Source: Octopus vulgaris
Taxonomy: Eukaryota
Assembly: GCA_951406725.2 (NCBI GenBank)
Contig: OX597822.1
Coordinates: 57,660,001-57,724,000, forward strand
Direction: 5' to 3'
DNA length: 64,000 nucleotides
This document shows, in pieces, positions 1,635-34,062 of this stretch. Under the pieces are notes generated by a model. The model was given only the letters and a program-made list of their open reading frames with translations. It ran no database searches and was not told the DNA's origin. The first letter of the stretch is position 1. Each line of letters begins with the position of its first letter. The translations under genes and the position numbers were made by a program.

Positions 1635-1735
1635 TATATTTTACCTGTCATCCAATCAACCATGAATGTTTGGGTGACTTCATCTTCTATTTTTTCTTTT
1701 CTTTTTTTTTCTTTTTTTTTTCCTCCTGTTTTGAG

Positions 1736-1804
1736 GGTTCTTCTCCAGATTCTTATTGGTTGACTTCATGGTTACATGGGACTCGTGTGAAGAGCGAGAA
1801 AAGG
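1736..1804 (+). CDS. candidate 69-nt cassette exon of NRBP
   Basis: long pyrimidine tract, ttgag|GGTTCTTC...GAAAAGG|gtattt; open in phase 1: (G)FFSRFLLVDFMVTWDSCEEREK. Confidence 0.35.
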
Positions 1805-3519
1805 GTATTTATGTGTTTTTCTCTTCAGGACATGTCCATTACCAGCAGCCACATTACATGTCACTTTAATTTTGCTGTGCTATTATTGCTTTGCTGCTTC
1901 CCATTTTGTCACTCCAGCAGAATGTGATATCTGTTTTTGTTCTTTTTTCTTTTAGCATTGGTATGACTTTGCATAGTCTCCAGCAGACAAAAACATCACA
2001 ACCACTTATTTACTCCTCTTTTTTTTTAACCCCCATTTTGTTTTTACACTTTGTCTTATGGAAACTGTGTTATGGTAGTTTATGAGGATAATATTAGTCA
2101 TTTATTTTTTAATCAAGTTTATTTTTCCCCCTTCTTCTTTTGGTGGATATAGTAAAAATGAAGACTAAATGCTTTTGTAGCATTTAGTTTTGACCATTTA
2201 CATTATAGAACAGATCCCTTCAAGGTTGACTTTACTTTTATTCCTTCCAAAGCTGACAAAATGGGGGTGATTTATCTTTTCCTGCAACTCAAAATGTGTG
2301 GCCTTGTGCCTATATTGGAAATTATTATTGTTATTATGGACCAGTTAAATTCTTTTGCTGCTAGATAGTTATTCATGGCAACATAGCTCTGTTATTACTT
2401 TAAAGAAGTCATTTTCTTGGATATGACTCAAAGCGATCATAGAAAAATCAGTAACTCATCCACTTCACAGCTAATTTGATTACCATATGGAAAAGCATTT
2501 AGTTATTAAGAATGAAACAAAGGCTTGCTCCAACAATTCATAGTAAATGAGGAATCTGGTGGAGTCTACCAATCTATGTTAACGCTCCATTCCTCTTCAA
2601 CATATATTTTTTTATATACTGTTTAAAATCATCCAGAAGTTTAAGAATAGCAAGAAACAAAAATGCTCTTATTTTTAAAGGAAAGCTGATTGGTTTTATT
2701 TTTTGAAGATTGTTTTATACACAAGTACAAAACATATCAGATTTACAATATCAGTTAGTCCTTTGGTACCTAAAAGTATCAATATATCTAACTAGAGTTG
2801 ATTACCTGATGACTGATAGCTTTCATCCCCCCCCAAAAAAAAATCAAAAGATTGGCCAAGTAACCCCTATTACTTTATTGTGTAGGGTGAATTATTTTTC
2901 TTTGAGTTTGAAATATATGAAGTGCCCCAGCATGGCTACAAGCCATTGATTGAAACTAGTGAAAGAATATGCATAGTAATAGTTGTGAAGAGATTCTACA
3001 GAAGTACTTGATATTAAGATACTACGTGCACCAGTGATTTATTAATCAAACTAACTGCTGAAATTGCATTATATATGATGATAATCAATCCATTTACTTA
3101 AGCCCTTAGCAATGGTGGGTTTATAAGCAGTGTCTCATTGATAGGTAAAGTGGGTTTTCATTTGCCTATGAAGACTCAACACAAGATTGAAACTAGTTTG
3201 GCTGATATTTATTTCAGTTCACAAGAATATTCTATATCAAAGTAAGGCCAAAATTCATAGTTGTTGGATTCCTTAACTCAAAATAGATTTAGGGTGCAGG
3301 AAAGGCTGTGTCTTTGCAGTCATGTGGTTCTGAGCTCAAATCACTGCACCTTGGTCAAGTATCTACTACTATAACTGAAGTTGACCAATATCTTGTGAGC
3401 GAAATGTGGTAAATGGAAGCTGCTAAAGACCTGAGTATGCATCTGTTTATTTTCACTAGTATCAAAACTGGTACTGTCTCAAAAGGTAATTTAGTCATTT
3501 GATAAAATAGCACTTGAGT

Positions 3520-3785
3520 TAATATACCTGTTCTTGAGCAAGACACTTTATTTCACGTTGCTCCAGTTAACTCAGCTGTAGAAATGAGTTGCAATGTCAC
3601 TGGTGACAAACTGTATTGGCCTTTGCCTTTCTCTGGATAACATCAGTGGTGTAGAGAGGGAGGCTGGTTTGCATGGGCAACTGCTAGTCTTCCATAATCA
3701 ACCTTGCCTGGATTTGTGCTTCAGAGGGTAACTTTCTAAGTGCAATCCTGTGGTCATTCATGACCAAAGGAAGTCTTTACCCAGT
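3520..3785 (+). mobile_element. SINE fragment (family D)
   Basis: cttgagcaagacactttatttcacgttgctccagt core; related heads at about 13285-13440 (+) and 42776-42945 (-). Confidence 0.55.
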
Positions 3786-6489
3786 AGGTGATTAAAATCA
3801 TGCAATCTGTTTCCCAGCATAACCACAGTCCAATGACTGAAATTTTTAAAAGTGGTGTGTGAATGCTGCCTGCATAGATATATAAACTTGGAAAATTATA
3901 TTGGCTATGAAAACAAGAATTACTTAGTACCTTTCCAAGGGTGCAATACCATAGCAGTTTGGAGACATAGGAATACATGACCTCTCAGGTACTTGTATCA
4001 AGTTGATCGTTATGATCCTTTCTCTTCACTGTTACAATAGGAACTATGTCGAAATGCAGAGAAGCTGTGAAAGTAAATGCCTGTTGTTTCCTTACTTAGG
4101 TGCAATGTCTCTTTGAGAATTTATTTCATTGATGCTTCGTTCAGAAGGAGAGTTAAAGGAAGTCATATTGATAGAGTACTGGAAACAGCACCTGGAAGGT
4201 GGTGGGTGGAGTTTCATATCCTGTGGCTAGCACTGCATAATGTCCACAGCCAAGATACCTGTCAACAACCAAGGCTGCCTACCTCTTTGTAGACTTCCTC
4301 CAACACAGAATAATTCACTGTGATATGCATCAGTAACATTGTGGAGTTGACATGTATATTTTGTTTGCAGTTTTGAGTTCAAATTCTATTGCAAGTACAG
4401 TTTGTCTGCCATAGACTAGCATTCTATAGAAAGGAAAAGTTCTTTCATTTGTGTACAACTATGAAAGTAAAGATTAATCACTAACCTATTTGTGATTCAA
4501 GAATGATATCCATTCTTTGCTGCTTTTCTTTTTTTCCTCTATGTTGAACTGTTATACAATTGTTACTCAGATTTTGAGTTGTTTCCTATCTTCATAAGTG
4601 TGTTCCTATTCTGTAACATAAAGGCAGCATGCTGGTGGTAGAATCATTAGTGTGTCAGACAAAATGCTTAGTGGTATTTCTTCTAGCTTTATATTCTAAG
4701 TTCAAATTCTACCAAGGTTAACTTTGCTTTTCATCCTTTTGAGGTCAAGCCCTGGGGTCAGTGTAACTGACTTACCCTCTCCTTGTAAAATTACTGGCCT
4801 TGTGCCAAAATTTGATATTGTTATTCTTTATAGCAAAGGAGTGCTGGAACTATGTTGTTTTTCCTTATATTTCCCTACATTTTGTCAGTTTTGCTTTATA
4901 TCAGTCTGAGGGTCAATAAAATAAGTCACAGTAATGTAATAGGAATCCATATTATGATCTCTCTCTCTCTCTCCCCTTCCTTGAAATGTGTGGTCACATG
5001 ATAATATAGAACATTTTTGTTTCTGTAGTAGATGCAGGGATCATAAGTTAAAATTCAAACTCTGGAGGCAGAGTTTTCAAAAAGTTCTGTTCCCACAAAG
5101 AATGAAGAATCTTTTAGTTCTAAGCATTTCCTTTAGTCAAAGAGTGAGGGGGAAGAGAGAGAGAAAAAACAACAAGCTAAAAACGTTTTTTTTTTAATTT
5201 TCTTACCCAAAGATCAAAGCATAACACCTCTCTCTCTCTCTCTTACACTCCTCACACACACACACACACATGCACAGAACAAGTGGCAAGGACTGATCCT
5301 TTTCACATTCTGATTATTCTCTCAAATGTAATGCTTATTTCTTCACATTCTTTTGAATTAATCATGCATTATCTCAAAGCTTTGAAACTTCAATGATGTG
5401 ATTGTTATTTTTAGAATGACACTGTAGGGTAGGTGAGAGACTGTCTGGCCAGTTTGAACGTAAAATATATAGAATGTTTGTGCTGTATATGGCTGGTTTC
5501 GATGCTAAAGGATTAGACATACATCCTTCATTCCTTATGCCAATTAAACTTGACTAATCATCTGATGGAACCTTAGTTGACTGAATCAACATCAAATAAA
5601 CTCACCCTTGTTTTACCTTCAAATTATAAAAAGTGGTCAAACTTCCTGACTTATTTGATTGAGTTCCTACCACAGATCTAAATTGGCCCCTCCATTTATC
5701 TTTAGGGTTCTTTATGCTTGTTATTGTTTGGTAATTAGTTGTCCAGGTCATCTTTTTGAAGCTTAACCAATCAATTTGATTTGCACTATATTTGAAATAG
5801 TGTCACCTCAAAGCTGTGTGATGTGCGTGCGTGTGTGTGTGTGTTTGTGCACGCTGGCATTTTCCCGCTTATTTAGTTAACTTCTGTATCACAGAATAAA
5901 ATATGGACACTAATTTTCCACTGCATTGGATTATCAGATTTAAAAGGGGGGGGGGGGAAAAAGTATATAAACATATATTCAGAATGGAAAAAAAAAAAAT
6001 TGTCTCTATATTTTTTTTTTAATTTATTGTTTTCTATATGCATTTTCTTTTTATTTAAAAATACTTTTCAATATCTTTGTTATGATCTAAATACTGGTCT
6101 CTGTTGCTATTCCACAGCACTGCGACACTTGCTATGTTCTTTATCTTTGCTTTCAAACACGCCCTGTCTCTTTCACATTTCCTATTCTCTCTTATTTTTT
6201 CCTACATGTTCTATTTATTTCTGCTCTCTCTCTCTTTCTTTGTCTCATCTACTCTCTCTGATCTCACTCTCGTTTACTCTTTCACCTTCCTTTTCTTCCA
6301 TCTACTCTCCCTCTCACACATGTACTCTCTCTTTCTCTCTCTCTCCCCCTCTCTCTCTCTATCTATACACAGACACACACACACACACACACACCATGTC
6401 TTACATTTAATCTCTCTTCTTCATATTCTCAACTACTCTCTCTCATCTACTCTTTCCCTTATTCTCTCTCTCTAGTCTACTTTCTCCCT

Positions 6490-6680
6490 TATCTCTCACA
6501 CATTTTTCTATCCCCCTCACACATCTTTCTCTCTCTCCTCACACGTCTTTCTCTCTCTCCTCACACGTCTTTCTCTCCCCCCTCACACGTCTTTCTCTCT
6601 CCCCTCACACGTCTTTCTCTCCCCCTCACACGTCTTTCTCTCCCCTTCACTCATCTCCCTCTCCTCCTCACATCTCTCTT
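6490..6680. repeat. pyrimidine-rich minisatellite, 21-24 bp unit
   Basis: about 6-7 tandem copies of cctcacacgtctttctctc(tc/cc), within a roughly 900-bp CT-rich tract. Confidence 0.85.
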
Positions 6681-6757
6681 TCTCTTTCCACATACACCTA
6701 CTCTTACACTTATTCTCTATTCTGCTCATTCTCATCTTTTTCGTATCTCTCTATCTT

Positions 6758-6788
<31 letters not shown>

Positions 6789-7317
6789 ACTAATCTTTTG
6801 TACTCCCCACCTTCTTGTCCCCACCTTCTAATTACCTGTCTCTGCTCACCCCTTTATTTTTCTATAATCTGATCTATCTGTCCTCTTTCTATCCCTCATT
6901 CTACCATTTTCTCCTGCTCTCTTTACTATTCCTTGACTCCCCTCCTCCTCCTCCTCTTCCTTCTTTCCCTGCCATACATTCTCTATCAACTTTGTCTCAT
7001 CATCTTCGTCATTATCAACATCATCCACAATGCTGCTACAATTTCTGCCACATATAATGTACAGCTACCATACAATTTTATTCCTCTTCAGTAAATTTTA
7101 ATTATTCCACCAATGGTTTTTGTCTTATCTTTATTTCGTTACAGTCAGTCAGGAGTTTATTTTTACTTTACTTAATGCCTTGCAGCATATGTTCTTGCTT
7201 TATATTTTATCCTTGAAATGGTCACTCTTTTTGCTGCTAAAGTCTTTAACTTATCTCAAGAAAAACAAACAGAAAAAAAAAAAATGGTTTATCATTATTA
7301 TTATTATTATTATTATT

Positions 7318-7563
7318 AAGGCAGTGAGCTGGCAGAACCGTTAGCATGTTGGGCAAAATGCTTAGCGGCGTTTCTTCCAGCTCCTTATGTTCTGGGTTCA
7401 ATTTCTGCTGAGGTCAACTTTGCCTTTCAGCCTTTCAAGGTTGATAAAGTAAGTGCCAGTCAAGTACTGGGGTTGATGTAATCGACTAGTCTCCTCCCCT
7501 AAAATTTCAGGTATTGTGCCTGTAGTAGAAAGAATTGATATTATTATTATTATTATTATTATT
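7318..7563 (+). mobile_element. tRNA-derived SINE (family A) with (ATT)n tail
   Basis: aaggcagtgagctggcagaa head, B-box-like gttcaa, gtcaactttgcctttc core, (att)n tail. Confidence 0.8.
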
Positions 7564-7680
7564 GATCCCAATTAGAAGAGTGTGATGCAATGTGTAATAA
7601 AACACTAATTGACTTTGTTTATTGAACTGAATATTTCGACAATTAAATCATTATTATTTTAAATTGTTGTTATTATTATT

Positions 7681-7913
7681 AAGGCAGTGAGCTGACCGAA
7701 TTATTAGCACACCGGGCAAAATGCTTAGCGGCATTTCACCCGTCTTTATGGTCCGAGTTCAAATTCCACTGAGGTCAACTTTGCCTTTCATCCTTTTGGG
7801 GTTGATAAAATAAGTACCAGTTGAACACTGGGGTCAATGTAATTGACTTACCCCTCTTCTGAAATTGTTGGCCCTGTACCAAAATTTGAAATTATTATTA
7901 TTATTATTATTAT
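7681..7913 (+). mobile_element. SINE family A, tandem second copy
   Basis: same head, core and (att)n tail; decayed copies also near 2200, 4620, 14600, 23720(-), 56460, 59750(-). Confidence 0.8.
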
Positions 7914-9139
7914 TCGTAAATCACTCAATATATTTCAGCAACACTTCCAAACATGATTGTAATTTATCTTAGCCTATTTAAAATAAGTTACTTTGGTGAC
8001 GCAAATGAAATTTTATCCTTTCCTTGTATTTTTATTGAAAATGTGGTGATGATGATGCCATAGTTAAACATGCAGCTAACTGATGATGGTGATGATGATG
8101 ATGACGACGTGATGATATCTCAGTCACATTTAAATTTTTCAATATGGAGACTTTTTTTGACTTTTTTCTTTCTCTTTCCACTACCATCCTCTCGCACCAG
8201 TAAATCTATTTCTTTTCTCATTCTATAACTTCTACTCTTTCGGTCATGGAGCTCTCTCTTTCACCTTGCAAGCTACTGGTGCTAGTGCCATGAGAAAATG
8301 CACCTAGAACATTCTGTAAGTTGGTTGGCATTAGGAAGAACATCTAGCTGCAGGAACCATGCTGAAACTGAGACATTGGAACAAGATGTAGCCCTCCAAC
8401 TTATCAGATCTTCTCAAACTATCTGACCCATGCCATCATGGAAAAAGGCCATAAAAGGACAATTTCTGTTGGCTTTTCTTTGTTATTGGTTAAATTTTTA
8501 ATTTTTTTTACTTCAGGTGGGCTGATATTTTGACTATTCTTTACAGTACTGGCACCCTCTTAACCAACACCACTTGGTCTTTGGGTACCCTTAGTGGAGT
8601 TCCTTCCATTGTAAACATTTGAATCCATCCTAGATTTTGTTGCTCTCTCCATGTTTGTCCTGCAGACACTGATGTGTAGGTCTTTATTCAGGATCAGCAC
8701 AGTGCTTGGAATTTTCCTGTCAAAAATAACTGTTAATCAATATTACTTTATACTTCACAACTAAATTGAGTGAAGTGAAGAAATGCTCTTTGCCATATGA
8801 CACTACACAATATTTTCACTTAAGTAATTTTAACCATTGTTGCTAAATAGAGATGTGTGACCGGTTTCAATGGCGTCTCATTCCTAAATAACTGACATTA
8901 TGAAAACAGAAGTTACACTTGACAACATTAGGATCTCTTCACAGAGTTTACTTTCAAATTAAATGAGAAATATACTGGGTCTTCTGATAATTTCCAAATC
9001 TTTTTCTGGAGTTCGTCTGTGATATTTACCAATTAACTGCGGTTTAAAAATTTTTTTTTTTTTTTCCTATCCTTTTCATTCTTCAGTGATCAAATATTTA
9101 AAGACTCTAGAATTGAGTGGTCTCAATGCTTAACCAAGA

Positions 9140-9720
9140 TGAGTTTCTGTAAGCAATAATGAAGACTGAAAGTTACTACTATTGAGAAAGTGGTCATGCT
9201 TGATATGTGATAAAGGAATAAGTAGAGATGAGATACAGTGTACTAGGTGTAGATTTGGATGCACAAAGGCATGTAGTGGGATCACAGGCAGACTATGAAG
9301 GAAGCTAGACTTCTGTGGCTGAAACACAGGAATAGATATCAGTAAGAGACATGAATTATATTCCTTCAAATGCTCAGAAGGTTCCATAGGAGTTGATAGC
9401 TTTTTGCAACATTAATAACCTAATTGGTGTTGCAGGCGAGAAAGCTTGGTTGCCAGAATAAGAACAAAGTGAAAAAGTTCTGCTGGAAATGAAGTGTTCC
9501 TCTTTCAGAGTGAAGGGTAGATTACATCATGTTGCATACAAAGTGTGATGCAACATGGTAGCAAAGCATGGGCCTTGGTTGTGGTAGATTTTCAAAGGCT
9601 AGAAAGGAATGAACCAAGATAGTGACTCTGTGTCACCTAGTGTTAGTATGAATGAACGATGGAGTACAAATGATGTAAGAGAAAAACTGGATATAATTGG
9701 AATTTAATGTAAGAGGATAA
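9140..9720 (+). mobile_element. decayed RTE-clade LINE fragment (region C-terminal to RT)
   Basis: broken frames retain KWSCLIC.KG...IQCTRC...CSGITGRL (Cys-rich insert), FKCSEGS and FRVKGRL...VMQHGSKAW-like motifs. Confidence 0.6.
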
Positions 9721-11084
9721 TTACAGTAGTTGCAGTGGAACAAGTTGTTTGAAATCTGCTCACCCCTATACAAATACTATTGTACAGCTGTTTTAGTATG
9801 TTGGAAAACCTTTCGAGAATTCCTTTCTACACAAACAATTTCCCAGAGGCTTTTGCAGATCTTCATATCATATAAGCCTAAAATTATAGTAAGGAGGATT
9901 AGTTTCTATATTACAAGTTGTTTAGAGCCTAATTATTTTAAGTTCAATTACTAGTTGCATCAACTTTTATCTTTCATTCATTTTTTTCAAGAATCAATGG
10001 AAGAAGCACAAGTTATTAGTTATAACCCTTTCATGACTAGAAACACAAAATATATGCAAAATATTTCTTTAAATAAGCTGTAAAAATAGATACAAAAAAT
10101 CTATTAAAGCTAATTTATATGTAGACGGCAAAATCATAAGATACATACTTCGTGTGTCTGTGGGTGTGTGTGTGTAATCCTTTTACAAGCTGAATATATT
10201 ATCAAAGCATTGTCATTATTTTAGAAGAACCTCAAAAAATATCTAACCAATCACTGTCTACTCTTTATTTTTATATTTTTTTACCTTCAAATCCCCTTTT
10301 CATAAATTATTCTTACTATACTGTTCTTATTAGATCATTAAAATGTTGTTATTTAACTTCAGGTCAGCCTTGATGCAGCATATCTATACTTAAATGTGTT
10401 CTACCCAGAACCATCTAGTCTTCTTTTCTTTTTTGTTTCCAGGCGTAGTATATCAAGGACCACATTATTAATTGTATTTTTTTTTAATAGAATGTGTGTG
10501 CTTTAAGGGAGATTTGTCGGCTACTTCTAGAGGCTTTCTTGTTGACTTGATTAGGTCTATATTTATAACTGTATGTGTGTCTTTATATTCATTTTGTGTT
10601 TCTCTATGGTACTGTGCGATAAAGAACAATTTGGATAGATTATGTTGATTAGAGTTGTGTTTTGTTTGTAGAGTTGAGAAAACCTATTGCAGAGTTGGTT
10701 ATAATGTTGTTTTTGTAGCCTACAAGAATAATTTTTGTGAAATATGAATATAATTATGATGATGGTTGTGATATTGGTATTCACCACTAATTTGTACAAA
10801 AGTGGGTTTTTTTTTTTTTAGCAAATTTTTGTACATATGAGTTATAGAGGTGTTTAGGTTGGACTTTGCAAATGGTCAGACTTCCTGCTGAAAAACAACT
10901 TGGTGATCTAACAAGGTGTGAAGCTTGGAAAAGAAACAGATATAAATTATGGACGTTGCTTTGGTTTAGTTTCAGGTCAGATCTGATTCAGCAAACTTAA
11001 ATGTTTCAACCAAAATCATTCTGTCTATTCCATCCCTCCAAATAGTTTCTCTAGGAGAACATTTATTTTATGTGCTATCGCCAT

Positions 11085-11275
11085 GTAAGAAGCATCCATG
11101 CTGGACCACATAAAAAGCATTCAGCACACTCTGTAAAGTGGTTAGCATTAGGAAGGGTATCCAGCCGTAAGAAACCAAGCCAAAACAGACTGGAACCTGG
11201 TCCAGCTTGCCAGCTCTGGTCAAACTGTCCCACCCATGCCAGTATGGAAAACAGACATTAAATGGTGATGATGAC
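11085..11275 (+). mobile_element. retroposon family C with (GAT)n tail
   Basis: gtggttagcattaggaagggtatccagc...cccatgccagtatggaaaacagacattaaatggtgatgatg; more than ten copies in window on both strands. Confidence 0.75.
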
Positions 11276-11899
11276 ATTGTTGTTCATTCCACTTTTAAGA
11301 CAACAGGATATGAGATTTTTCCATTATTTCTAGCAGGAGAACAACTGCATAAAGATTCCTCGTTTACTCACACAGTTTTGGCAGTGAGGATAGTACAGCA
11401 AAATCAATATTATGAATATGTAATATTTCTCCTAATATACATCATTGATCAATATATTTTCTTCATCTGAACTATTTTTAAATTTATTTTCTAAGCCAAC
11501 ATGGCTTTGGTCGTTGTGCAAATTCAGATTTCTCCATGAACGGTTGAAGCAAGTCCTTTACTGCTATTTGATATTGAGTCATAACTGGGTTTTGTTGTGT
11601 ACCAGTCTACCAGCATGGTGCAGTGTCCATTGCTAAGACACACAGTTCTGTCAACCTTTATATAAAAAGCTAATCTGAGGATTTTGCTAGTTTAAAAATA
11701 TCTGTGGCTACTCATTGAATATTGTGGGCCTAAGATTATATATCTGCTGGATCAGAGCTGAGTTAAGGTTAAATCACAGCAAGATAACATAAGACACTGC
11801 ACTATATCATTGTAATCAAGTACAATGCTGTTTTTTCTTTTCTGTTTTTTCGTGTAACTTGCTGAGTCAAGAGGAAGGGGATAATGCTCATAGCCTTTG

Positions 11900-12940
11900 C
11901 AGGCCATCTTAGACCAATAAGATTGATTTCATTAATGTCCCTCTTGAACCTTCCAAGTCAACACCTATAGAAAAGAAACAATCAGAAATGGAAATTTCAG
12001 AGGGTTAATGATTTGGGAATGAAGGACTAGGCATAGTTATGTGTGAGGCCTGGAGACTGTAGGCATAACAAGGGTGACAAGAGAAAGTGATAAATAGGTC
12101 AGGAATGCCTGAGTAATAGAAAAGGCAGGCAGAGAGAGAGAAAAAGAGAGAGTGAGAAGACTAAACCTCTGAGTGACTTTATGCCAATCAGTTGGGTGTC
12201 ATTTTTCTCGATGTGGTCTGTGATGATTATGCATGCAGCAGTAGTGACACCAGGTGCAAGACCATTATGCTACTGAGGGTCTCCCTGGACTTTATAGAAT
12301 GTTACTAATTGTAGGGTGGGGGGAGAGCTAAAGTATCTCTGGTCCCCAAGACAAGAGCTAGTCATTGGGATGTAATCCATGCTATGTTACAGATGTACTC
12401 TCACCAAAAGAGATTCTCAGTGACAGTGAGGTCCAACATTTAGAATAATATGGATCCTCATTGCCTACTACACTGGGTTAAGGGGATGGGATGCAATGAT
12501 GTTTTCTTGTTGAAAGAGATAAGGTTGGTATGTCCACTTTAGAGGATGTTTTTTGAAATCTCTGTTCATGGAGTCAGTGTGTGCTTGGACTATGATGTTA
12601 TGGTTAGGGAAGAATAAAGGGCAGTGCCATCTGTAAGAGGGAGTATTGTTGGGTGCGATATCAAGTTATTGGTATATAGAAGATAGTTGGTGGGGATTGA
12701 ACTGTGGAGCATGCCAGGGTTGATAGAATGAGAGATAAAGAGAACTCCATCAACAAATACCACAAGAGAATTGTCTGATAAGGAAGCTACCAATCAAAGA
12801 GATGAGAGATAGATGAAGCCCCTAGGTGGGTAGTTTTAATAGGTGATTTACATGTCAGACATGGTTAAAAGTTTTGCATATATCAAGGGCAACAAATTGC
12901 ATTCACCAAATTTCTTGGGGTGCATAAGTTACCACTGAAG
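11900..12940 (-). mobile_element. decayed CR1/Jockey-group LINE RT fragment
   Basis: minus strand reads VALDICKTF (ALDISKAFD-like) near 12870-12893 and VFVDGVL...INPGMLHSS (GVPQGS region); many stops. Confidence 0.55.
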
Positions 12941-13756
12941 CCTGTTGCCCTCCAGGAAAGCAACCGGCTTTAGTGGTACCTCAATAATCAAATATGGTGA
13001 CAGTATACTTACGAAACTTATGCTAAATATTTTGTCGTGTGTGATTCTATTGGACTTTTAAGCAATAAAATCAAAAGTTGTGTTTTTAAGCAGATGTGCC
13101 TTTTGGAAACAAGTCTCCATTCATACTTGCATAGTTATCATCATCATCATCATCATCATTGTAGTAGAGTAAGATGTCCCTTGGTGACTGGCAAATCTTT
13201 TTGAGTCACTATTTGTAATATATTACAAATAGTGATTGTATGTATTCTCTGACACACACACACACATATACATACATACATGTGAAGGCACGTGGTTAAA
13301 GATATTTGACTCATGACCATAAGGTTCTTGGTCCCAACCTTATAGTCATGAAGCAGGAGGTGTGTTGTGTCTTTGAGCAAGGCACTTCATTTCATGTTAT
13401 TCTTGTCTGCTTAAACTGTAAACGAGTACCGGTCAGGTGCTGATTCTGCTCTCTCTCTCTCTCTTTCACTCTTGCCCTCCAGCTGTCACATCCTGGGTTT
13501 GGGTTTGCTGCTAGGTCAAGAGTGAGTGGGTGTCCAGAGAGCATCTATATCTATTTGCTACTACATACAAACCTACAACAATTAATGACAGCTGGATGTA
13601 CTACTGGCTGTGCTACATGTACACACAATGTATACTTTAACAAATATGCATACACACACAGACACACACACATCACATGCAAATATACATGCCTGTAAAC
13701 TCCCACTACCCCCCACCTTAAGGCCCGTTTACTTTCAGTACTTGCTTTTATTTCAG

Positions 13757-13810
13757 CACTGGTGACATCAGTCATGGTTTCCTGTGGTATTATCCATCTG
13801 TTCAGAACTG
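13757..13810 (+). CDS. candidate 54-nt cassette exon of NRBP (72 nt from upstream acceptor, start 13739)
   Basis: cttgcttttatttcag|CACTGG...AGAACTG|gtgggt; open in phase 1: (A)LVTSVMVSCGIIHLFRT. Confidence 0.35.
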
Positions 13811-16800: not shown

Positions 16801-16856
16801 TGTTTCCCAGTGTATTAACTGTGTTCTGTAGATTTTAAATGAAATAATAACAATGT

Positions 16857-19898: not shown

Positions 19899-19931
<33 letters not shown>

Positions 19932-19937
19932 CATTAT
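19468..19937. mobile_element. two head-to-head SINE family A copies (19468-19693 minus, 19708-19937 plus)
   Basis: the two halves are mutual reverse complements; (aat)n and (att)n tails face outward. Confidence 0.85.
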
Positions 19938-20228
19938 TCCATTTTTTTATTCTCTTTATTTGGTATATTCTATCAAATGACAACTGACGACTATTTTTAT
20001 GAAGGAAGCAAGTAAACAAAGCCAAACTATGGCGGCCTGCAAAATGCTTGCAATCACACAATAATGTAAAGAGTTGTGGGTAGGGTGGGGTGGGTTTTAT
20101 AATGAAGACAATTCACTAGCGAGGCAGTTGCTAGTAGACAATGTGTTTTATGCAACTTGGTGACACTTGTGTGCTTGATAACTTTTTATTTAGTCATTGG
20201 TAGGATGGCACAAATGACAGTGCTCAAA

Positions 20229-20412
20229 ATAACCCTTTAGCATTTAAACTGGTCAGATCTGGCCTCCCATACATACCCGGCAATGTCATTCTAAAAATAG
20301 ACAGTAGCATCATCAAAATGTTGAAGCTGCACGATAATGCATGATTGATTCAAAACAATGTGAATAAATAAGCTTTAGAGTCCATAAAGTAATCCAAATG
20401 CTGAAGAGTTAA
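20229..20412. mobile_element. piggyBac-like MITE
   Basis: taaccctttagcattta...aaatgctgaagagttaa termini; related copies near 5300-5516, 38150-38380, 39851-40062, 52355-52426. Confidence 0.6.
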
Positions 20413-21636: not shown

Positions 21637-21657
21637 GATCTTTCTTCGAGAGAATGT
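21637..21657 (+). CDS. NRBP1: candidate 21-nt alternative microexon of NRBP
   Basis: ctcattctctttacccccacag|GATCTTTCTTCGAGAGAATGT|gtaagta; strong splice sites, 3n, open in phase 1: (G)SFFERM(F). Confidence 0.65.
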
Positions 21658-21995
21658 GTAAGTATGACCCCTTTTGTTAGGGAAATAAGGGGGTTGAATT
21701 TTGCAAAAGCAGAAACTGACAAAGAGAGAGAGAGTGTGAAAGTGCATTAAAACATTTAAAAAGAATGAGGGAGGAAAAAAGAAAGAAAATTTATATATGA
21801 AACCTGACTCTTTAACAAAGTAATATCAACATTGTTATCCCTTTTTCGCATTGGCTTCACCCAAAATACAAAGTCTTGGACCCGTTCTAGAACTGCTCTA
21901 AATGTTTTGGCACTACCAAAATGGAAACTACACTGTTTGCTTTTGTAGATGCTTCTACAAGACTTATAAACAAGCAAAATGATTACATTAGCTTA

Positions 21996-22031
<36 letters not shown>

Positions 22032-24704
22032 TCACTAATAAAACACTTTCTTTTTCTAACCTGGCTAGAAAAATACAATAGCCTCATATAAGTTCCAAGT
22101 CAAGAAACCTAGTTGCCAAGTTTACAGTAAAATATCTACGTGAACTACATTCCTGCCCTCAGTGACAAATCTGTAGCAACCCACTGAATTAAGAAGCACC
22201 ACAAACTTGTTAGGTAGAGTCTTTCATTTTGTTGTAAGTTGCTTTAACCCTGTCTGTGTGGGTGAAATATCAAAAAATGCAGTACACTTTAGAAAGAATA
22301 CATCATATACATATATACAAACATAATTGCATTAGATGGCATGTTTAGTGACATTTAGAAGTGGATAATGCTTGCTTACTGTTACTAATATAAATAAATT
22401 TCTAAAAGCTATATATATGCTTTCAAATGCACACACATGGTGTTGTTTGTTGCTAATTTTCTGTGTAAATATGGCCAGCAATGACAAATTGGATGGACAT
22501 CCAGCTACAGAAATCTTGCCTCAGCAAATTCCATCTAACTCATGCAAGCATGGAAAACTGGATGTTAAAATGACAGGTGACAATGATGACAGCAACAAAT
22601 ATGACACATTTGCACCCAATTGGCAGGGTTGTTAGAGAGTTGAATAGATTGCTTTGTGGCAATCATTCTGGCTCTGCTGTATGAGTTTAAATCCCACCAT
22701 GGTTAACTTTGCTTTTCATTTTTTAGGGGTCAATAATCTACCAGTCTTATAATGGTATTGATTCTTCTCTTTCTTCCCTCTGGAAAGAAATGTGTTGTGA
22801 GTCATACTTGGAGAGGGAGGATCTCTACCAGATCTAAAATACCCAAGACATATTGTATGTCATGACACTATCCCTAAGACAACACCAAAAACTTCAGAGT
22901 TGATGTTATGTGTATGTATATATACACACACACACACATGCACATATTTATGAACTCCTTCCCAGTGACCTAACAAAATAACACCTTTAATTCTTGGTTC
23001 CACAGCATAATTTGAACACGTTCCCCCTTCACCACCCATACACATTCAATTATGCAGCAGTCTTAAATTGTATATAAACTCCCTTGTTTTAAGATTGATC
23101 TCATTACAATAATGTTGCTTCATCACTGAAAATGGTTAACATTTAAAGGTAGATGAATGTCAGTGTGAGGTCACTGCAGCACATATATCAGTTAAGTACT
23201 GGAACTGATTTAAGTAATTTTACTTTTCTGCGTTTGTTGTGTCATCTGAATGTCATGAATAAGTTATTTGTTATAAGTACTGTTTAGTAGCAATAAGTTA
23301 TCACTATTTGTTTACTTTGATGTTGTTAGTTGTAGTAATAAGCTGGTGGATTCCCAAGCAGCATTTATATTTTTAACGCTCTTGACAATGCTGAATTGAA
23401 TGGTACTGCCAAGGTGCTGAAACAATAGTGATATCCATTTGGCAGCTGATGATGGGAATATACATTTGTTATGCTTGGTAGTGAATTTGTTATATCTTAG
23501 TCTCATTCTGAGTTGTCCTTCATCCTTGTAAAGTGGAAAGTGTTTGTGGATTCATAGTTTGTTGGGATCACTTACATTGGTATTGTTTAGTTTTCTTCAT
23601 GAGTAACCTAATCAGGCTTAGATATTGGTGTCTAGTTATGAGAGGTTCTATGCCATATATTGTAGGAGTGATTTGGTAGGGCTAATACAGTTCATAATAA
23701 TAATTATTATTATTATTTATGAAAAGGACCAGCAATTTTGAGAGGAGAGGGAAGGGACTAGTTAGAACCATCAATTCTGATGATGCCAAAAAGATGAAAG
23801 GTAAAGTTATCCTTAGTGGGATTTGAACTCAGAAGGTAAAGAGCTGGAACAAATACAGTAAGATATTTCTTCTAATGCTCAAATGATTCTGCCAGTGTGC
23901 CACCTTAATTTTTTTTTTCTTACCTTAACACAAAATGACAACTAACAGGGTAGTAGTATAATTACTTAAATCAGCTCCAGTATTTAACCGTTATTTGTTG
24001 TATCAGCCTTCAAAGAATGAAAAGCTTACTTGAACATGATGGAATTATGCAAGGCATTTTATCTGGTACTGTACCATATCTGCCATCCATTATTCATTGC
24101 ATAACTAAAACAAAATGACTAAACTCTGAATTAGAGAGGAGGGTAATCTCAAAAATTGACATACTGTTAAGAAAAGACTGCTTTCTCTGAAGATAAGAAG
24201 ACAGCTTTAGACATGTTTTTGCCTCATTGGGAATCATCAGCACAGCAGTTGTCCTACTTCGACTCAAATAGCCATAAGATTTAGACATATACAAAATGAG
24301 TACAGAATGTTTATGGCTTTGGGTAATTTGCATAATTAAAACAAAAATTACCTAAGAGAATTGAATTTGGACAACAGATGAATTAAAGGTATACTTGATA
24401 GTATACAAGATAAATTCTTGATTTATTGAAACTATACTTTGCTTTGAGGGATGCTAAATAAATATCTGTGATGGGAAGCTCTTTTTGTTGCTGACTTCTA
24501 CTTCTCTCCCAGTGAGTTAATAATCTCCGAGTCCATTATACAACTTACAGTCCAGGCAGGTTTTATACAAGTAACTGGAAACAAATAACACCATTTAAGG
24601 AACCTTTTGTTTTTTCAAAGATTGTACAATATGTCAAGACCCATCAGGAAACCATTGTTTACAAACCAGCAAATACAAGGGAAACACACAAAAATATACA
24701 TGCA

Positions 24705-24737
<33 letters not shown>

Positions 24738-24842
24738 CTAATATAGGATAAAATTTTTCAAAAAAAATGTTATCAATGGCTAGCATATTAAAAAATACCT
24801 CTAAAGGTTAAATATATAAACAACTTATAAACAAGTTTATAA

Positions 24843-24947
24843 GTTATATATATACATATATACACACGCATGTATATATATATGCATGTGTATATATATA
24901 TATATATATATACACATTTATATACATACATATACACATATATATAC

Positions 24948-24996
<49 letters not shown>

Positions 24997-25140
24997 CATA
25001 TATATACATTTATATACATACATATACACATATATATACATGTATATGATACATATATAAATACAACACACACAGACATATATATATATATATATACATA
25101 CATATATATATTTGCAAAAAAACAAAAGACATATATATAT

Positions 25141-25192
<52 letters not shown>

Positions 25193-25350
25193 TAAGCTTC
25201 TTTCAGTTTCTGTCTACCAAATCCACTGACAAGGCTTTGGTTGGCCCGATGCTATAGTAGAAAACATTTGGCCAAGCTGCCATGCAGGGAAACTGAATCC
25301 AAAACCACATGGTTGAGAAGCATTCTTCTCAACTTAGCGACCACTCCTGC
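24843..25350 (-). repeat. expanded compound (TA)/(TACA) microsatellite attached to the 5' part of a SINE family B copy
   Basis: about 350 bp of TA-rich repeat at 24843-25190 abuts the minus-strand SINE B segment 25191-25350 at the position of its internal microsatellite. Confidence 0.8.
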
Positions 25351-26121
25351 AAATGCACATATGTACATATATCTGTGTGTGTGTGTGTCCATAGAGAGGG
25401 AGAGAAAATGAAAAAATCACAAAAAAAAATATTGGTTAGTTTCACAATCCAAATTTTGGTGAAATTTATTCTGTGTAGTAAAGGGTGAGATTGGAAAAAG
25501 AAAGAAAAACTAAAAGAAAAAAATATAAAGGATGAAGTGACATGTGCTGGCTCTGTGTGTGTGTGTGTGTGTGTGTGTACGTGCACAGAATCTGTAAATT
25601 GGTGCTCCTTTGATTGAACAATCTGTTAGACAAAACTTGAACTTTACAATATATATATGGTAGATGTAATTTGAAAAAAAAATTGCAATTGATATCACTG
25701 ATATTGGTACTAATGTTCGTGTGGGAAGTAGTAATGGTGATGGTGATAGTGAGTTGTTTGTTAGTCTCTATCTATCTATCTATCTATCTATCTCTCTTTC
25801 TCTTCCCCATTTTCCTACATGATACATACATATACATCACACACTATTCTTAATGCAATAGGAAGCGTAAACCAATTACAAGCTTCTCTCTCTCTCCTAA
25901 CAGCTAATATAAGTTGTCATGCTAAGTAACAATGGGCTTCTACTTCTCATCACTATCACCAACCAAAAAGAGGAACCAATTATTAAAACTAATAATAGTT
26001 ATGCTTAATAATTTGTCACACGACACTTTATGCTTTCATAATCTCTCTTTGCAATAATTTAAACTGTTCCCTAGGCTTTATATTTCCCCTCTTTTGCTGA
26101 TGGTACCCTCTTATCTACATA

Positions 26122-26161
<40 letters not shown>

Positions 26162-26702
26162 GTGATTATTATTATTGTGATTTTTATTATTATCATTATT
26201 ATTATTATTTAGAACTGCTCCCTCCCCTTTTATTCTGTATTTCATTTACATTAAATGTACACAAATGGTGCGTGTGTGTAATGTTTACTTTTTTATTATT
26301 ATATGTATTGGTATTACTATCTTATGTAAATGTTCATGTAATAGTTATAGTGGTGGTTGTATTAGTAGTTGTAGTAGTAGTAGTAGTCCTAACAATTTTA
26401 TACCTATCACTTTATCTCAAGAAAATATAAGTTGTCTGATATTGGCTTGGCATGAAATGAATGAAGGTAAAAACAAAACTATAATAAAAGAATAGAAGTG
26501 AATGAAATATGTTTTAATAATTCAATGATTTCTATTTTATTTGTACTTGAATTGCAGACATTTTACTGTCTGTGTGTGTAATATATAAAAGCTATGTGAA
26601 TTCAATGTTATTTGGAATGCAAACTTCAAAAATTTCTTGAAGCAATTTAAATCTTCATTATATTTGATTTAGTTCATTTCATATCTCTCTTTTTCATCCA
26701 TT

Positions 26703-26736
<34 letters not shown>

Positions 26737-27143
26737 GATATGTGCTTATGTCTCTAAACTGCTTGGGACTATATTTGTAATGTTCAGAAAACACAACTTA
26801 CCACTAATGTGTGTGTGTGTATAGATAGAAAGAAAGAAGACAAAACAGTGAACTTGCCATAGAAAGTGGAAAATCCAGCATTTCAGCATCCTTCAAGGAA
26901 AAGTTGAAAGAGAAATTAATGAGAGACAGCCAAGTTGTATGTCCTCCAAGTAAAAAAAAAATGGCTGCATACATGTGTACAAATACACACACATGCATAC
27001 ACACAAGTTTTGCAGCTTAACTAATGAGAGAAAGAGTACTCAATATATGTTATAGAATATATTTGTATGAAATTTCCAGTTCCATTCTGTTAACTTCTCA
27101 TTCAGTGCAATTTGATGCAGTGCCATCACTAGCTTTATACCAC

Positions 27144-27187
<44 letters not shown>

Positions 27188-27249
27188 TTTTATTTGTAGT
27201 AACTCATCGGCTGTGCGAGTATTTGTATGAATATATTTATATAGTACTA

Positions 27250-28893
27250 CTAAATGTACCATCTTCACCATCACTAACAGCAAACTCCATAACAACTATG
27301 GAATTTACACCTGCAATGCTGCGACGTCACCTTCAAAATAAGCGCAACTATGCCTCCCCTGGTCTCGATGGAGTTACATACCTGCTTCTCAAACGTGGCA
27401 GGCACTTCCTTTTACACCAGCTTTCTATTTTCTTCCAGTACTGTCTCAACAATGGTGCTACTCCGGAGCAGTGGAAAACTGCCAGTGTCATTCCTCTGTT
27501 CAAAAAGGGCGACCGCACATCACCTGTCAACTATCGCCCAGTCAGTCTCACTAGCTGTATTGCAAAACTGATGGAATCGTGTGTCAGAGAAACACTCTGG
27601 AACTTCTGGAGCTCTCACAGTCTCATCCGACCCTCACAATATGGATTTGTCCCTAACTCCAGCTGCAGTGACCAGCTTGTCGAGTTCCTTGAGGACATTA
27701 CTCAGATTACTGACAGTGGCTCATGGGTGGATGTTGTCTACCTTGACTTTGCTAAGGCTTTCAACTCTGTGCCACACAAAAGGCTTATGGTGAAACTCTC
27801 TGCAATGGGTGTGGGGGATGACCTTTTTAACTGGTTGAAATCCTTCATCCTCAGCCGAAAGGAGGTAGTCACAGTTCTAGGACAGCACTCTACACCATAT
27901 GAGATGTCATCGGGTGTACCACAGGGATCTGTCCTTGGTCCCTCTTGTTTGTGGCATACATTAACGACATAGATGCCAATTTAAAGAATGCCACAGTATT
28001 GAAATATGCAGACGACATCAAGCTGTACCTTGAAATCAAGAGGACAGATCCTGATGTCTACAACTCTTTCCTGCAATCAGACCTAGACACAATGCAGCAA
28101 TGGATCACAGACTGGCAACTGAAACTGGCTGTGGACAAGTGTACCACCATGCATTTTGGGAGAAAAAACCCTGCGTTCACATACTCCCTCCACAACACTG
28201 ATATCAAGAAATCCTCTTGTGAGCGTGACCTAGGCATCACTGTCAGCAGTGATTTGCGTTGGTCAAAGCATATCTCTAAGATTGTCAGGAAGGCCGAGGG
28301 TGTCTTGGCATCACTCAGCAGGTCTTTTGTTAGCCGCTCTCCAGCCATCTATTTAAAACTGTATACAGCTATGGTACGACCACACTTGGAATTCGCATCA
28401 TCAGTTTGGAACCCCTATCTTGCACAGAACATGGACCTCCTGGAATCTGTCCAGAGACGTGCAACCAAACGCATACCCTCCATCAAACACCTACCATATT
28501 CTGAGCGCCTTGTTTCCCTGGGCATGGATTCACTGAAGCTCCGGCGTTTGGCGACGGACTTGGTAAACACCCACAAAGTTATCAACCACCTCACCAACAA
28601 CAACACTGAACACCTTTTTGATCTCCATGTGTCTAACACACGTGGACATGCCTACAAAGTCAGAAAACAATACAGCTCCCATGACTTTCGGAAACATTTT
28701 TTCACGCTCAGAGTTGCTGAAGCATGGAATAAACTGCCTGCGTCAGTTGTTGACTGCCATGACACTGCATCTTTTAAGGCCCTCATGCTTTCCGAAATCC
28801 GCCGAAACTACACCTGATTATATATACACTTTAGATGAGTTGTAGTGCACCTGAGCACTGTACACAATTATTATTATTATTATTATTATTATT
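27250..28893 (+). mobile_element. 5'-truncated CR1-type LINE with RT domain, short 3' UTR and (ATT)n tail
   Basis: ORFs 27223..27972 and 27945..28817: SPGLDG, NYRPVSLTS, YLDFAKAF, GVPQGSVLGP, YADD (28005-28016), ERDLG, VRPHLEFASSVWNP, TRGH, WNKLP; one frameshift near 27942; (att)n 28866-28893; 5' boundary approximate. Confidence 0.95.
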
Positions 28894-29029
28894 ATAAATA
28901 TTAAAAATATTACAGTTAGGTCATATGTAAACAAACAAACAGTTTGTTTTGAAGCGTCCTCATGGCTGGTTGCCGGCAAATTTTTCTGCTCTTGAAAGGA
29001 TTTTATCCTTTATATATACTGTTCAGTAT

Positions 29030-29228
29030 TTACACTCTTTACTCTTTTACTTGTTTCAGTCATTTGACTGCGGTCATGCTGGAGCACCACCTTTAGTCGA
29101 GCAAATCGACCCCGGGACTTATTCTTTGTAAGCCCAGTACTTATTCTATCAGTCTCTTTTGCCGAACCGCTAAGTAACGGGGACATAAACACACTAGCAT
29201 CAGTTGTCAAGCAATGCTAGGGGGACAA

Positions 29229-29295
<67 letters not shown>

Positions 29296-29476
29296 CATAT
29301 ATATATATACATACATATATACAACAGGCTTCTTTCAGTTTCCGTCTACCAAATCCACTCACAAGGCATTGGTCGGTCCATGGCTATAGCAGAAGACACT
29401 TGCCCAAGATGCCACACAGTGGGATTGAACCCGGAACCCGGTTGGTTAGCAAGCTACTTACCACACAGCCACTCCT
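29030..29476 (-). mobile_element. full-length SINE family B
   Basis: (tactctt)n tail, CpG-retaining body, internal (CA)n(TA)n, head ending ccacacagccactcct. Confidence 0.88.
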
Positions 29477-32400
29477 AAAATTTATCTTTCTACTTGTTCT
29501 ATTATAGTTAGATTTCCTACATGGGACAGAAAGACTGCAAATTTACAATTGTCACCGAAATGACATTGTGGGAGTGTTATGGTGCTATGTGGATACAAAA
29601 GCCCCACATTTTGTTCACTGAGCATTTACCTCTGCCTTCTATCATGTCTCCCATTTAGCTTATGGACAATAAGCAAGAATTTCTGCATTAGAATTTGGTC
29701 TGGGATGGCATGAATATGTCACAGTAGATGCTGCTGCAACTGGATTTAAAAGCAGTCTTCACAGGCTGTTTGTTTACATGCCACTGACAAATGGAGTCTC
29801 TATACAGTTGATCAAGCTATTAGAAAGAATAGCCAAATCTTCCTCAAATCACATCCTACCATTTTAAATAAAAGAAGGATGCATTAGACAATATTAGTCC
29901 CTGATATAGAAAGAAGACGGTATCACCATGATATTGAATAGCTTTGATCATAGGTTTTGGTTATCATAAGGCTGACTTGTGGCTAAACAACAACAGAATT
30001 CCTTGTTATACAAATTAAACTTCATTAAGACCAGTATACATGTCAACAATATATGAAAAGAAGTGATAAAAAAAAAAGAAGAAAATTGCAGCAATTCAAT
30101 TATTTCTCTAGAGTTACATAAAGCAATAGTTATGCATGCTTGTTTTAATGACGTTAATGAGCGTTGTCTCAGAAAAATATGCAAAATATAGTGGCTTATG
30201 ATTCTTATTTTCTCTAAGTATTCTTGTATATTAATGATTTCTTGCAATTTTTGACACTATCTGGATCAATAATTTCTGTTGATTTTATTGGAAATGGACA
30301 CACAAGCCATTTATTGACCAAAATTAGATGCAAGAAAATGGGACATGCAAGTTGTTTTGTCGTTATTAGAAAGCAAAACCTCCATTGAAAATGTCTCTCT
30401 TTTCTTTTAGAGATAATATCATACTTCTATCTCTACTATTGCTTCTCTTAGATAAAAGGAAGAATTTTATCCAATAATCATACTAGAATTGAAGGGTCAA
30501 ATTTTCTGCTGGTGATGTGTGTGCATATATGTATTATATTGATTGTTGCTTGTTATTTAGTAAATCAATCAGCTGAATGGTCTTTTGAATGCAGTCTAGC
30601 CTGTATGTGTGTTGCAACAGTGCAGTCCTAGGCATATGGACATTATGCCAGTGTGGGTCACATCTAATTTTTCATAAAATGTCAGCAATTGAACAGAATT
30701 CAAGTATTCAGGTCCTGCAGAAGGAACCTATTCTTTAGGTTTCATTTTTAGCTGGGTTATGCAGCTCACCATCATTGATATTCAGAAATTATGTGGTCTA
30801 CCATTTGTATTGAATGCATTTGTTGTAAGACTACCTGTACTCGAAAGTGAGCAGTTCTGTTAATAGCTTGCTGAAATTACATTTATCTTGAGTCAACATC
30901 TAATGAAGGGAGAGCGATATCAGTGCCTGTGTCTTTTTTTGTCCAGTACCTTTTACCTGTTATCTGTGCTTAATTTTTCTTCTATGTCTCAAAAGGTACG
31001 TGTAGAGCAGCAACAAAATAGCAAAGATAGTATTAGAAAATTAAAATTGTAAGAAAAATAATTTTATATATCATTGAAATGCTAAAGGAACTTTTAAATC
31101 ACACTGTGTGTGTGTGTGTATAGTTTGTGTAACAAGAATGAAAGATACTCTTGATATATAAATGTATGTATATACTTATGTGTAGATAATATATTTTAAT
31201 GCCGGATCATGATTGGGTGTTAGGCATGTTGTGTTCTGTTTGGGCAGATTTTTTTTTTATAACATTTCCATATATCTGTTCCATAATCAAGTAGCATTTA
31301 ATTTATGTATTTTAGTTTGTTTGGTTTAATAATATTTTAGTTTGAGTATTATGTTTGTTGTAGTTAGTATGCTGAATTTGTTTCTGTATTGCTTTAATAA
31401 TATTAAACAAAAATTAAAGAAAAAAACCCTCACCTCACAAAGTGCAAACTTCAAGCCACCACTTAAGAAACTTCAGATTAGTAGATGAACTAGTTGGTCG
31501 TACATCACCTCTACTAGGTCCATCTGATATGCCTGTCGCTAATCCTCCCACCTCTCCTACACTATTTCAGTTTACACAACATGTACTATCCACTTTTCCA
31601 AATTCTTCCCTAGACCATCAATTTGCCAGCCTTGAAATTAACAATGTCAATTCACCAGCCCATACATTTCCCCATTTCAGTCTTAGTAGTACCATGCTCA
31701 AATATTTTGTTGTGGCCTGTTATTGCCATAGGTACTGTGCCTTCCTTCTGACTAAGCCATAAAAAGAAGAGAAAATTTATTAATTTGTGTGAAACTTAAA
31801 ATTGTTATCTTCGTGGCTCATCTATATTAGATATACAATATAAATGGTGTAACCTTTATGGCCCTGTTATATTAGAGATACAACTATCAATACATCAAGC
31901 TAATGAGAAGATCGCTACACAGTTACCCAACATGCTAGAAATAACCACACCTCTCTCAAAATTTAAGAATATGACTGGGTGATCTCAGTGGGATCATCTT
32001 TTATCATGGCTCTGCTTTGCTGGGGCCAGTCTGGAGTAAACAACACAACACACACAAAAAAACAGTAGTTTATTTCATTTTTGTTTAGAATATCACCAAC
32101 AAGCTAAGTGATTGGTTTGGATATCGATTTAGTAAAATATATTATAAAACCCGTTACTCAACAGTGTGTCTAGATACATTTGAAGTCTGGCAATGATGAA
32201 TGAGAAGCAGACCCAACATGTTTTTTCTGATTACAAAAAACACTGAAGTCCTTTCATTTCAGAAAAATTTTCAAATGTTGACAGACCATGGCAATTTATT
32301 AAACCAAGTCTATCATTGATGTGTGAATATTAACTGATAAAAACAACTTAAATATGTTAAAAATAGAACATATTTGTGTTTACAATAACATGTGTGAGTG

Positions 32401-34062
32401 TACAAATGTATCTGTGTGTGTATATGTATATACATGTACACATGCATGCTCATGTGCACACACACATATACACATGGCTGATTACAGAAGCATTCCATTT
32501 GTAGTTACAGTATTCTGTTATTATATAACTTTAAGTTTGGTGCTGCTTGACTGACTGACTTTTCCTCAGCCTTGGTCTACAAGGTTCCTACTTTCCATAG
32601 TGTCCTTCTAGTATTTAATTTCATACCACACAAACCTATGCTTGTTTATTTATAGTTGTTACATTTTGAGCCAGCATCACTAGGTGAAGAGGAGATAGAG
32701 AGTGAGAGAGAGGGGGGAGGGACCTGTGCAAGCTGAATGTGTGACTCGGTTTCAATTCGTGCTTCGGGCTGTTTTTATGCTTCTCTTTCATTGCTTAAAG
32801 CTTTGAGGAAAACCTCATGAACATCTCACATTCTCATGTCCTTTACTGGTATCAATCTGAAGTGTTTTAATTATGTAAGAAATCAATGCAATTTTGAAAG
32901 TGTCCTTTTTTTTTTTCCTTTTTGAATTCAGCGAACATAAGGTAAATAAATAGTCCATGGTGTACAAATTTTCTTTTTTCTTTTTATGTACACCTGTGAA
33001 AGTAACGAGTGTTTAGTGAATGTTTGAAGTAAACCAAAATGTGAAGTATTGTATTTGTGTTCTAAATCTAAATACAGCCAACATTTTCAAGAAGCTATTT
33101 CAGCTTTAATTTTGTAACTTTTGCTGTCAATCACTTCCCTCACTTCACACCACTCCCATTATATTTTTCAGTTCTGTTGATTAAAATTACAGCTAAATTA
33201 CTCTGAAAAGAATAAACATCCGTCAAGATGTCTATTTTATTTTGGTTTCCTGGCCTCCTATTTCTTTCTCTATAAAATTGTCTTCACATTAAAAGATCTT
33301 TTTATGTAACAAACACAGTGTTTTTGTGTCACCTTTTATTACAGGTTTGCATTCCAAAAATTTAATTAAAAACTAAGAGAGAAAAAGTAATGTTAATATT
33401 ACAAAGAAGAAATTCATTCTGAAGAATTATATTTATTTGTTTACTTATTTTAACGTCATGTTTCATTTGTAACAGCTGTTCCAGAGGAACAAAATATAGT
33501 GTCCTTTTACTAAATAATTTTTATTTTCCAGTAAAATATCAAATTGAAAGTTTCCTGTTGCTGCAAGCCATCTAGGAGAGAGGAGAGCTCTGTAATGCGC
33601 TTCCAAATACAGCTTTCCATTAAAAAATAATAATATGAGACTGCTTTTTAATGTTTAGCCGACCATCTTCCTAGTGCGTATGTGGAAAATGTACCCGTCT
33701 CCACCTTTTTTGCCATAGACTGTGACCAATACAGTTTTCTTAAAAAAGCAAACTAACCAAGTTAACTAAAGTTACAGCTAATTATATATGCTTACATCAT
33801 ACACATGCACACATAGATATGTATATGTATTTTACCTGGTTTGTACTTTGGACGGCATACATGTATAGCTATACAATATGTGCATGTGTTTTAATAATGC
33901 TGAAGTTACGTTGTGTTGTGTTTGTATGTGTATGCATATATATATATATATACACACACATACATACATACACATATATAAGATGTAATGTATGCTGCCG
34001 ACGCTATAAAAGTAATCCAATTTTGCTCAATCTACAGTCATGTTTCTTACTGTTTCTTTCAG

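Follow-up and report, generated by a model that had tools for sequence, protein, structure and literature searches.

How does the nuclear receptor-binding protein (NRBP) gene of Octopus vulgaris make use of the very long intron that interrupts the activation segment of its pseudokinase domain? The window analysed here, a stretch of 64,000 nucleotides (nt) of contig OX597822.1 (positions 57,660,001 to 57,724,000), contains the 3' part of this intron and the exons that follow it. An initial annotation, made from the DNA letters alone, had proposed that the intron may hold an alternative or mutually exclusive cassette array that swaps the activation loop, and had ranked it as a candidate for an undescribed system. 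Public isoform records point to a different arrangement, in which one NRBP intron carries four unrelated in-frame exons, named A (36 nt), B (69 nt), C (54 nt) and D (21 nt), whose predicted combinations lengthen the pseudokinase activation segment by 7-48 residues at its start. The best overall explanation, which we hold to be probable, is that these combinatorial cassettes lengthen the loop and are likely to tune the packing between NRBP and WNK kinases or within NRBP pairs. That A-D are ordinary regulated cassette exons, with the form that skips all of them as the default, is a claim that we make with high confidence from gene models and contigs.

Cassette exons in public isoform records

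We tabulated 21 named Octopus NRBP records, leaving out one UniRef duplicate, and viewed 15/23, 5/5 and 13/13 members of three cephalopod clusters. The isoform records are predicted gene models, and those of O. vulgaris may derive from the others; RefSeq models rest on RNA-seq junctions. All four cassettes are held by the RefSeq isoforms as listed, which run from X1 to X14 in O. bimaculoides and from X2 to X12 in O. sinensis. Cassette A is contained in 5 of the 21 records, B in 8, and C and D in 9 each. Of the 16 possible combinations, the records show eleven (none, A, B, C, D, A+D, B+C, B+D, C+D, A+C+D and B+C+D), with an added length of 7-48 residues, and the combinations unseen in the 21 records are A+C alone and the four with A+B.

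Because B+C, B+D, C+D and B+C+D all have records, the cassettes are additive and there is no swapping: they stack, and mutual exclusion does not hold for the array, with A versus B as the one possible exception. The presence of alternative exons in this NRBP intron, as initially annotated, is thus borne out by public isoform records from two species. The terms 'swaps' and 'mutually exclusive' do not hold, as B, C and D are co-included in records, differ in length and sequence, and are apparently all skipped in the main assembled form. The label of an undescribed system has to be withdrawn as well, since the exons are already present in the RefSeq isoforms of O. bimaculoides and O. sinensis.

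A narrower claim, compatible with stacking cassettes, is that A and B exclude each other within a series of cassettes that are otherwise free. None of the 21 records joins them and, if the RefSeq isoform number falls with length, as it does in the listed records, seven of the eight A+B lengths are excluded in O. bimaculoides. However, A and B are 15.5 kb apart, differ in length and sequence and can both be skipped, separate tissue programmes would give an identical pattern, and the main cluster was viewed for 15 of its 23 members, with A+C alone likewise unseen. We therefore regard such a pair as a minority possibility.

Public run contigs were examined over window positions 32800-37400 in four runs, which carry no tissue labels and none of which is on record as RNA. 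The constitutive exon that starts at 34063, directly after the long intron, is covered in all four runs and, among the listed contigs, is an internal piece of a spliced contig of ~2 kb in three of them. The contig match begins at 34058, 5 nt before this exon, and the additional bases are those in which the KIGS exon, the constitutive exon before the intron, ends; no cassette ends in them. As these five bases fit the KIGS exon end only, the all-skipped form is likely the main assembled form.

Position in the protein and proposed effect

The gene encodes an NRBP/Madm pseudokinase, that is, a WNK-related kinase fold without HRD and DFG motifs, followed by a C-terminal CCT-like domain. Where WNK3, the closest solved structure, has HRD and DLG, octopus NRBP reads HGN and SVA. 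KIG-SVAP aligns with KIG-DLGL of WNK3, so that the inserts begin at the DFG-equivalent position of the activation segment, which agrees with the location first proposed for the alternative exons. The accessible text of PMC12266122 describes NRBP1 as devoid of DFG, HRD and VAIK and reports that WNK1 phosphorylates its T-loop at Thr232, three residues before WNK1 Ser382. [quoted passage not shown] Whether NRBP activates WNK kinases by allostery or by scaffolding is unsettled, according to the available part of PMC13519141.

The Thr of octopus HVKT is likely the counterpart of human NRBP1 Thr232, in which case the cassettes would lengthen the segment between that Thr and the N-lobe. NRBP has no catalysis to switch, and the likeliest effect would be on domain contacts: the inserts may tune how the pseudokinase domain packs against a WNK kinase or a second NRBP. 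An effect on pseudokinase contacts in the NRBP-TSC22D-WNK complex is drawn from the literature only and is put forward tentatively, as possible rather than probable.

For the isoforms with D and with B+C+D, AlphaFold2 models reached a mean predicted local distance difference test score (pLDDT) of 61.4 and 56.2, with loop values below 50 at residues 185-226 and 173-267, respectively, and a helix at 202-215 within B at a pLDDT of ~27. These models support no structural conclusion on the loop. The Octopus inserts were also considered as CCT-docking motifs (RFxV/I, RxFxV/I or RWxC, as defined in the accessible parts of PMC12413468 and PMC12266122) and rejected, as none of these motifs is formed; the Ruditapes insert alone forms RxFxV.

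The same junction in other animals

Among the stored homologues, 260 could be scored by pattern, many of them redundant. Of the types of insert found at the KIGS junction, three have the look of mispredictions. Lineage-specific inserts are those of Ruditapes (9 amino acids), Babylonia (8), Lymnaea (3), Biomphalaria (3), Elysia (5), Dermacentor (19) and vertebrate NRBP2 (8). The NRBP2 insert is present in primate and viper records and absent from one crow and one tortoise record. For metagenome loci, 80 were kept from 203 relatives, and 52 of these 80 were scorable: 39/52 are contiguous at the codon concerned, 11/52 have a phase-1 GT intron at the same codon and 2/52 show another arrangement. 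Four of the 11 intron-bearing loci (L077, L083, L088 and L091, from compact genomes) contain, inside an intron of 239-276 nt, a conserved 42-nt cassette that shows both synonymous and replacement changes. In contig L034 this cassette is spliced in (769-810), and the related contig L027, which is 76% identical, is without it.

The motif [RK]xF[ASG] recurs in the 42-nt cassette, in octopus D together with its junction and in the inserts of Ruditapes and NRBP2, and is present in 0.4-0.7% of open random intron pieces. It was chosen post hoc, and the number of independent inserts (~14) is our own estimate. We treat the shared motif as a lead, which could reflect either an old shared exon or convergence. 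Judged by sequence, the junction is a repeatedly used insertion site across animals, with inserts that appear unrelated to each other. A much wider proposal, which we consider unlikely, would make the NRBP activation segment an animal-wide splicing dial, in which an ancient intron has repeatedly gained, or has kept from the bilaterian ancestor, a short [RK]xF[ASG] exon (octopus D, clam, vertebrate NRBP2, compact-genome invertebrates) that resets WNK engagement. The octopus would then have expanded this into a code of four exons, giving 11 or more variants of the loop, for the control of WNK and chloride/volume signalling by cell type.

Two side observations concern the same homologues. In beetle and snail records (P0022, P0046, P0055, P0056, P0069 and P0119), KIGS is joined to the exon after next, and this loss of the whole activation-segment exon is a possible further splice variant of the loop. 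A tick-like NRBP protein (P0089) is filed under the name of a tick virus, probably through host contamination of that record.

Conservation within cephalopods and weight of the evidence

All 48 residues of B, C and D agree between the O. bimaculoides and O. sinensis records, as do 11 of the 12 residues of A. A diverged homologue of A (7/12 identical) occurs in a cuttlefish record and two contig-derived proteins (P0151, P0149 and P0150). We lean towards selection acting on at least A and D, given the recurrence seen in other animals.

Several observations weigh against combinatorial cassettes that tune the loop. No contigs or reads that include B, C or D were seen, the support consisting of predicted gene models, and such models may over-combine short-read junctions. 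The junction is free of inserts in 215 of the 260 scorable homologues and occupied in 45. Cephalopod cluster 3, made up mainly of contig-derived proteins, has B, C or D in none of its 13 members, and no carrier of B, C or D was found beyond Octopus among proteins of similar or shorter length, where clustering at 90% hides isoforms; B, moreover, has weak splice sites. The constitutive protein differs at 1/511 residues between the two Octopus species, so that the identity of B, C and D is no proof of selection and is suggestive only. Finally, NRBP1 with the T232A substitution still rescues WNK signalling in human cells (accessible text of PMC12266122), which leaves the role of the NRBP T-loop unclear.

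Part of this evidence would also be accounted for if only A and D were functional, and B and C were young, low-level, Octopus-only exonisations with little effect or a misfolded protein as outcome. The searches made gave no homologue of B or C beyond Octopus, B has weak sites (GAG acceptor and GTATTT donor) and C a GTGGGT donor, both are hydrophobic, like translated T-rich intron, and the main contigs appear to skip them. Against this, B and C together are identical at 41/41 residues with the frame kept in two species that were annotated separately, and C has a TGC at -14. We consider it improbable that B and C are without function, and retain the additive use of all four cassettes as the preferred explanation.

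Sequence features of the candidates and chance expectation

B, C and D preserve the frame, have a length divisible by three (3n), are free of stops, share phase 1 and are flanked by AG/GT sites; the positions, 3n lengths, phase and open frames of the candidates were all as initially annotated. Of these candidates, those at 1736, 13757 (54-nt form) and 21637 recur in isoform records, whereas the candidate at 15427 and the 72-nt form of C (from 13739) are found in 0/21 records and were rejected.

Over the interval of 58,386 nt between the KIGS exon and exon 34063, a loose filter leaves 150 candidates with an open frame and phase 1 on the sense strand, compared with 106 on the antisense strand and 114.5±8.4 in 10 shuffles, and a stricter filter yields 23, 8 and 10.1±2.8, respectively. 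Microexon candidates with strong sites, of which D is one of three in the interval, number 3 on the sense strand, 1 on the antisense strand and 1.3 in shuffled sequence. The comparison with shuffled and opposite-strand sequence that had been suggested thus gives a higher sense count, yet sequence filters alone do not single out B, C and D; these stand above chance because they are present in public Octopus isoform records. The idea that every candidate is a splice-like hit due to chance, or an artefact of annotation, draws on these 23-150 candidates and on support that comes here without direct reads. It is very hard to reconcile with the same exons being annotated in two species, A in cuttlefish and junction inserts in several phyla, and we give it little credence.

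The similarity first noted between B and D (GFFSRFL and GSFFERMF) amounts to 10/15 nt. Among 2000 random 69-nt pieces of intron, 373 reach this level, or 57 when the first 21 nt alone are compared. A match that is reached by 3-19% of random pieces is too weak, and B as a duplicate of D was dropped. A Dscam-like array of duplicated, mutually exclusive exons that swaps the activation loop, in favour of which this slight likeness and the presence of four 3n exons of the same phase within a single long intron could be cited, is contradicted by the B+C, B+D, C+D, B+C+D and all-skipped records and by exons that are not homologous, and is scarcely credible.

The end initially given to the array, 32941, belongs to the 10-nt candidate E, which is not 3n and lacks isoform support. 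As a real exon, E was rejected: it is not above chance, and among the pieces listed only unspliced, low-depth contigs span it. Its inclusion would shift the frame towards an early stop, as in a possible poison exon.

Gene structure and other features of the window

For gene mapping, 100 kb of sequence upstream of the window was added. The window exon at 47131-47436 is 100% identical to Octopus sinensis NRBP, which confirms the gene identity initially assigned, and tblastn of public isoforms places the gene at ~-70467 to 52590 in window coordinates (Table 1). Cassettes A-D divide the 58,386-nt interval into pieces of 10.6, 15.5, 12.0, 7.8 and 12.4 kb. The upstream introns of the gene measure about 16, 8.7, 1.2, 4.4, 12.3 and 2.8 kb, and the contrast that had been drawn with other introns of 0.4-5 kb therefore stands within the window but fails upstream, at the introns of ~16, 8.7 and 12.3 kb. 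With pieces of 8-15 kb and upstream introns of up to 9-16 kb, the size of the long interval is less odd than the window suggested.

Table 1. Features of the NRBP locus of O. vulgaris; positions are window coordinates unless a contig prefix is given.
Feature	Position	Strand	Description
Window	G000:C9:57660001-57724000	forward	genome 2.8 Gb
KIGS exon	ends G000:C9:57635676	+	constitutive; 24.3 kb upstream of window
Cassette A	G000:C9:57646245-57646280	+	36 nt, 12 amino acids; upstream of window; in public isoform records
KIGS-to-VAPD interval, 3' part	1..34062	+	part of 58,386 nt
Cassette B	1736..1804	+	69 nt, phase 1-1, 23 amino acids (GFFSRFLL...EEREK); weak GAG acceptor, GTATTT donor
Cassette C	13757..13810	+	54 nt, phase 1-1, 18 amino acids (ALVTSVM...HLFRT); GTGGGT donor
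21-nt candidate	15427..15447	+	weak GTACTT donor; likely chance hit
Cassette D	21637..21657	+	21-nt microexon, phase 1-1, 7 amino acids (GSFFERM, next residue becomes F); strong sites, GTAAGT
Candidate E	32932..32941	+	10 nt, not 3n; strong acceptor and donor; no isoform-record support
Exon VAPD...APEYE	34063..34146	+	constitutive; rest of activation segment; holds Thr likely equal to human NRBP1 Thr232
Remaining NRBP exons	37186..52590	+	constitutive; C-lobe, CCT-like domain, stop; tblastn of public isoforms

Several further features were observed around the gene. Inside the long intron, broken reading frames resembling reverse transcriptase lie at 27133-28900 (+), which we take to be a remnant of the long interspersed nuclear element type. 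A short frame at 1290-1500 (+) looks like the DNA-binding N-terminal portion of a pogo/Tigger transposase. The intron that follows exon 34063 contains very high-copy repeats at 34340-34600 and 36650-36800, with a summed contig depth of >100,000 and ~5,000, respectively, which are probably similar to short interspersed nuclear elements. A second NRBP microexon, GHSKKKQ, is optional and spans 21 nt in records from Octopus, Argonauta and cuttlefish. In the present assembly (locus L005, G000:C9:57620423-57620444, upstream of the window) it contains ten A in a row and therefore measures 22 nt, probably through an error in the homopolymer or as a variant in this assembly.

Comparison with known systems

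The RefSeq NRBP isoforms (such as XP_014780127.1, X1, of O. bimaculoides and XP_029642062.1, X2, of O. sinensis) have the same exons and combinations, by automatic annotation only. A literature search, which had most subscription papers outside its reach, found no paper on NRBP activation-loop splicing or on cephalopod NRBP. NRBP had no match by name in the searched supplements of the microexon papers PMC12626424 (12 files), PMC7821500 (8 files) and PMC7935315 (12/19 files), the tables of which may use identifiers. What we describe is no new system but the ordinary splicing of cassettes at a site that is used repeatedly, annotated and apparently undiscussed in print.

Dscam1-type mutually exclusive clusters place several same-phase exons in one long intron. 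In contrast, the octopus exons are non-homologous (36, 69, 54 and 21 nt), additive and all skippable, and at 8-15 kb apart they leave no steric block that would impose mutual exclusion. Neural microexons of the SRRM4/eMIC type (3-27 nt) have a UGC close upstream of the 3' splice site. The length of D (21 nt) fits this class and A, B and C are longer; the upstream UGC is absent from D, as there is no TGC within 60 nt of A, B or D.

A closer parallel is 'Type I convergence', in which different tissue-specific exons occupy the same coding position of bilaterian orthologues (bioRxiv 10.64898/2026.09.05.749416). That study includes O. bimaculoides and deals with neural exons, and NRBP/Madm is not named in the accessible main text. 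The octopus NRBP junction resembles it in having different exons at the same position, whereas the exons there are neural. The 8-residue insert of vertebrate NRBP2 shares the junction with octopus, is close to D in size and has R-x-F in common, but its sequence differs and it is single instead of part of a stack; no species was seen here to have both the included and the skipped form. As splicing, the surprise is modest, since a cassette series is ordinary and already in public gene models; as insertions that recur naturally at the DFG-equivalent position, in many animal lineages and in NRBP2, these exons are ready-made probes of WNK activation.

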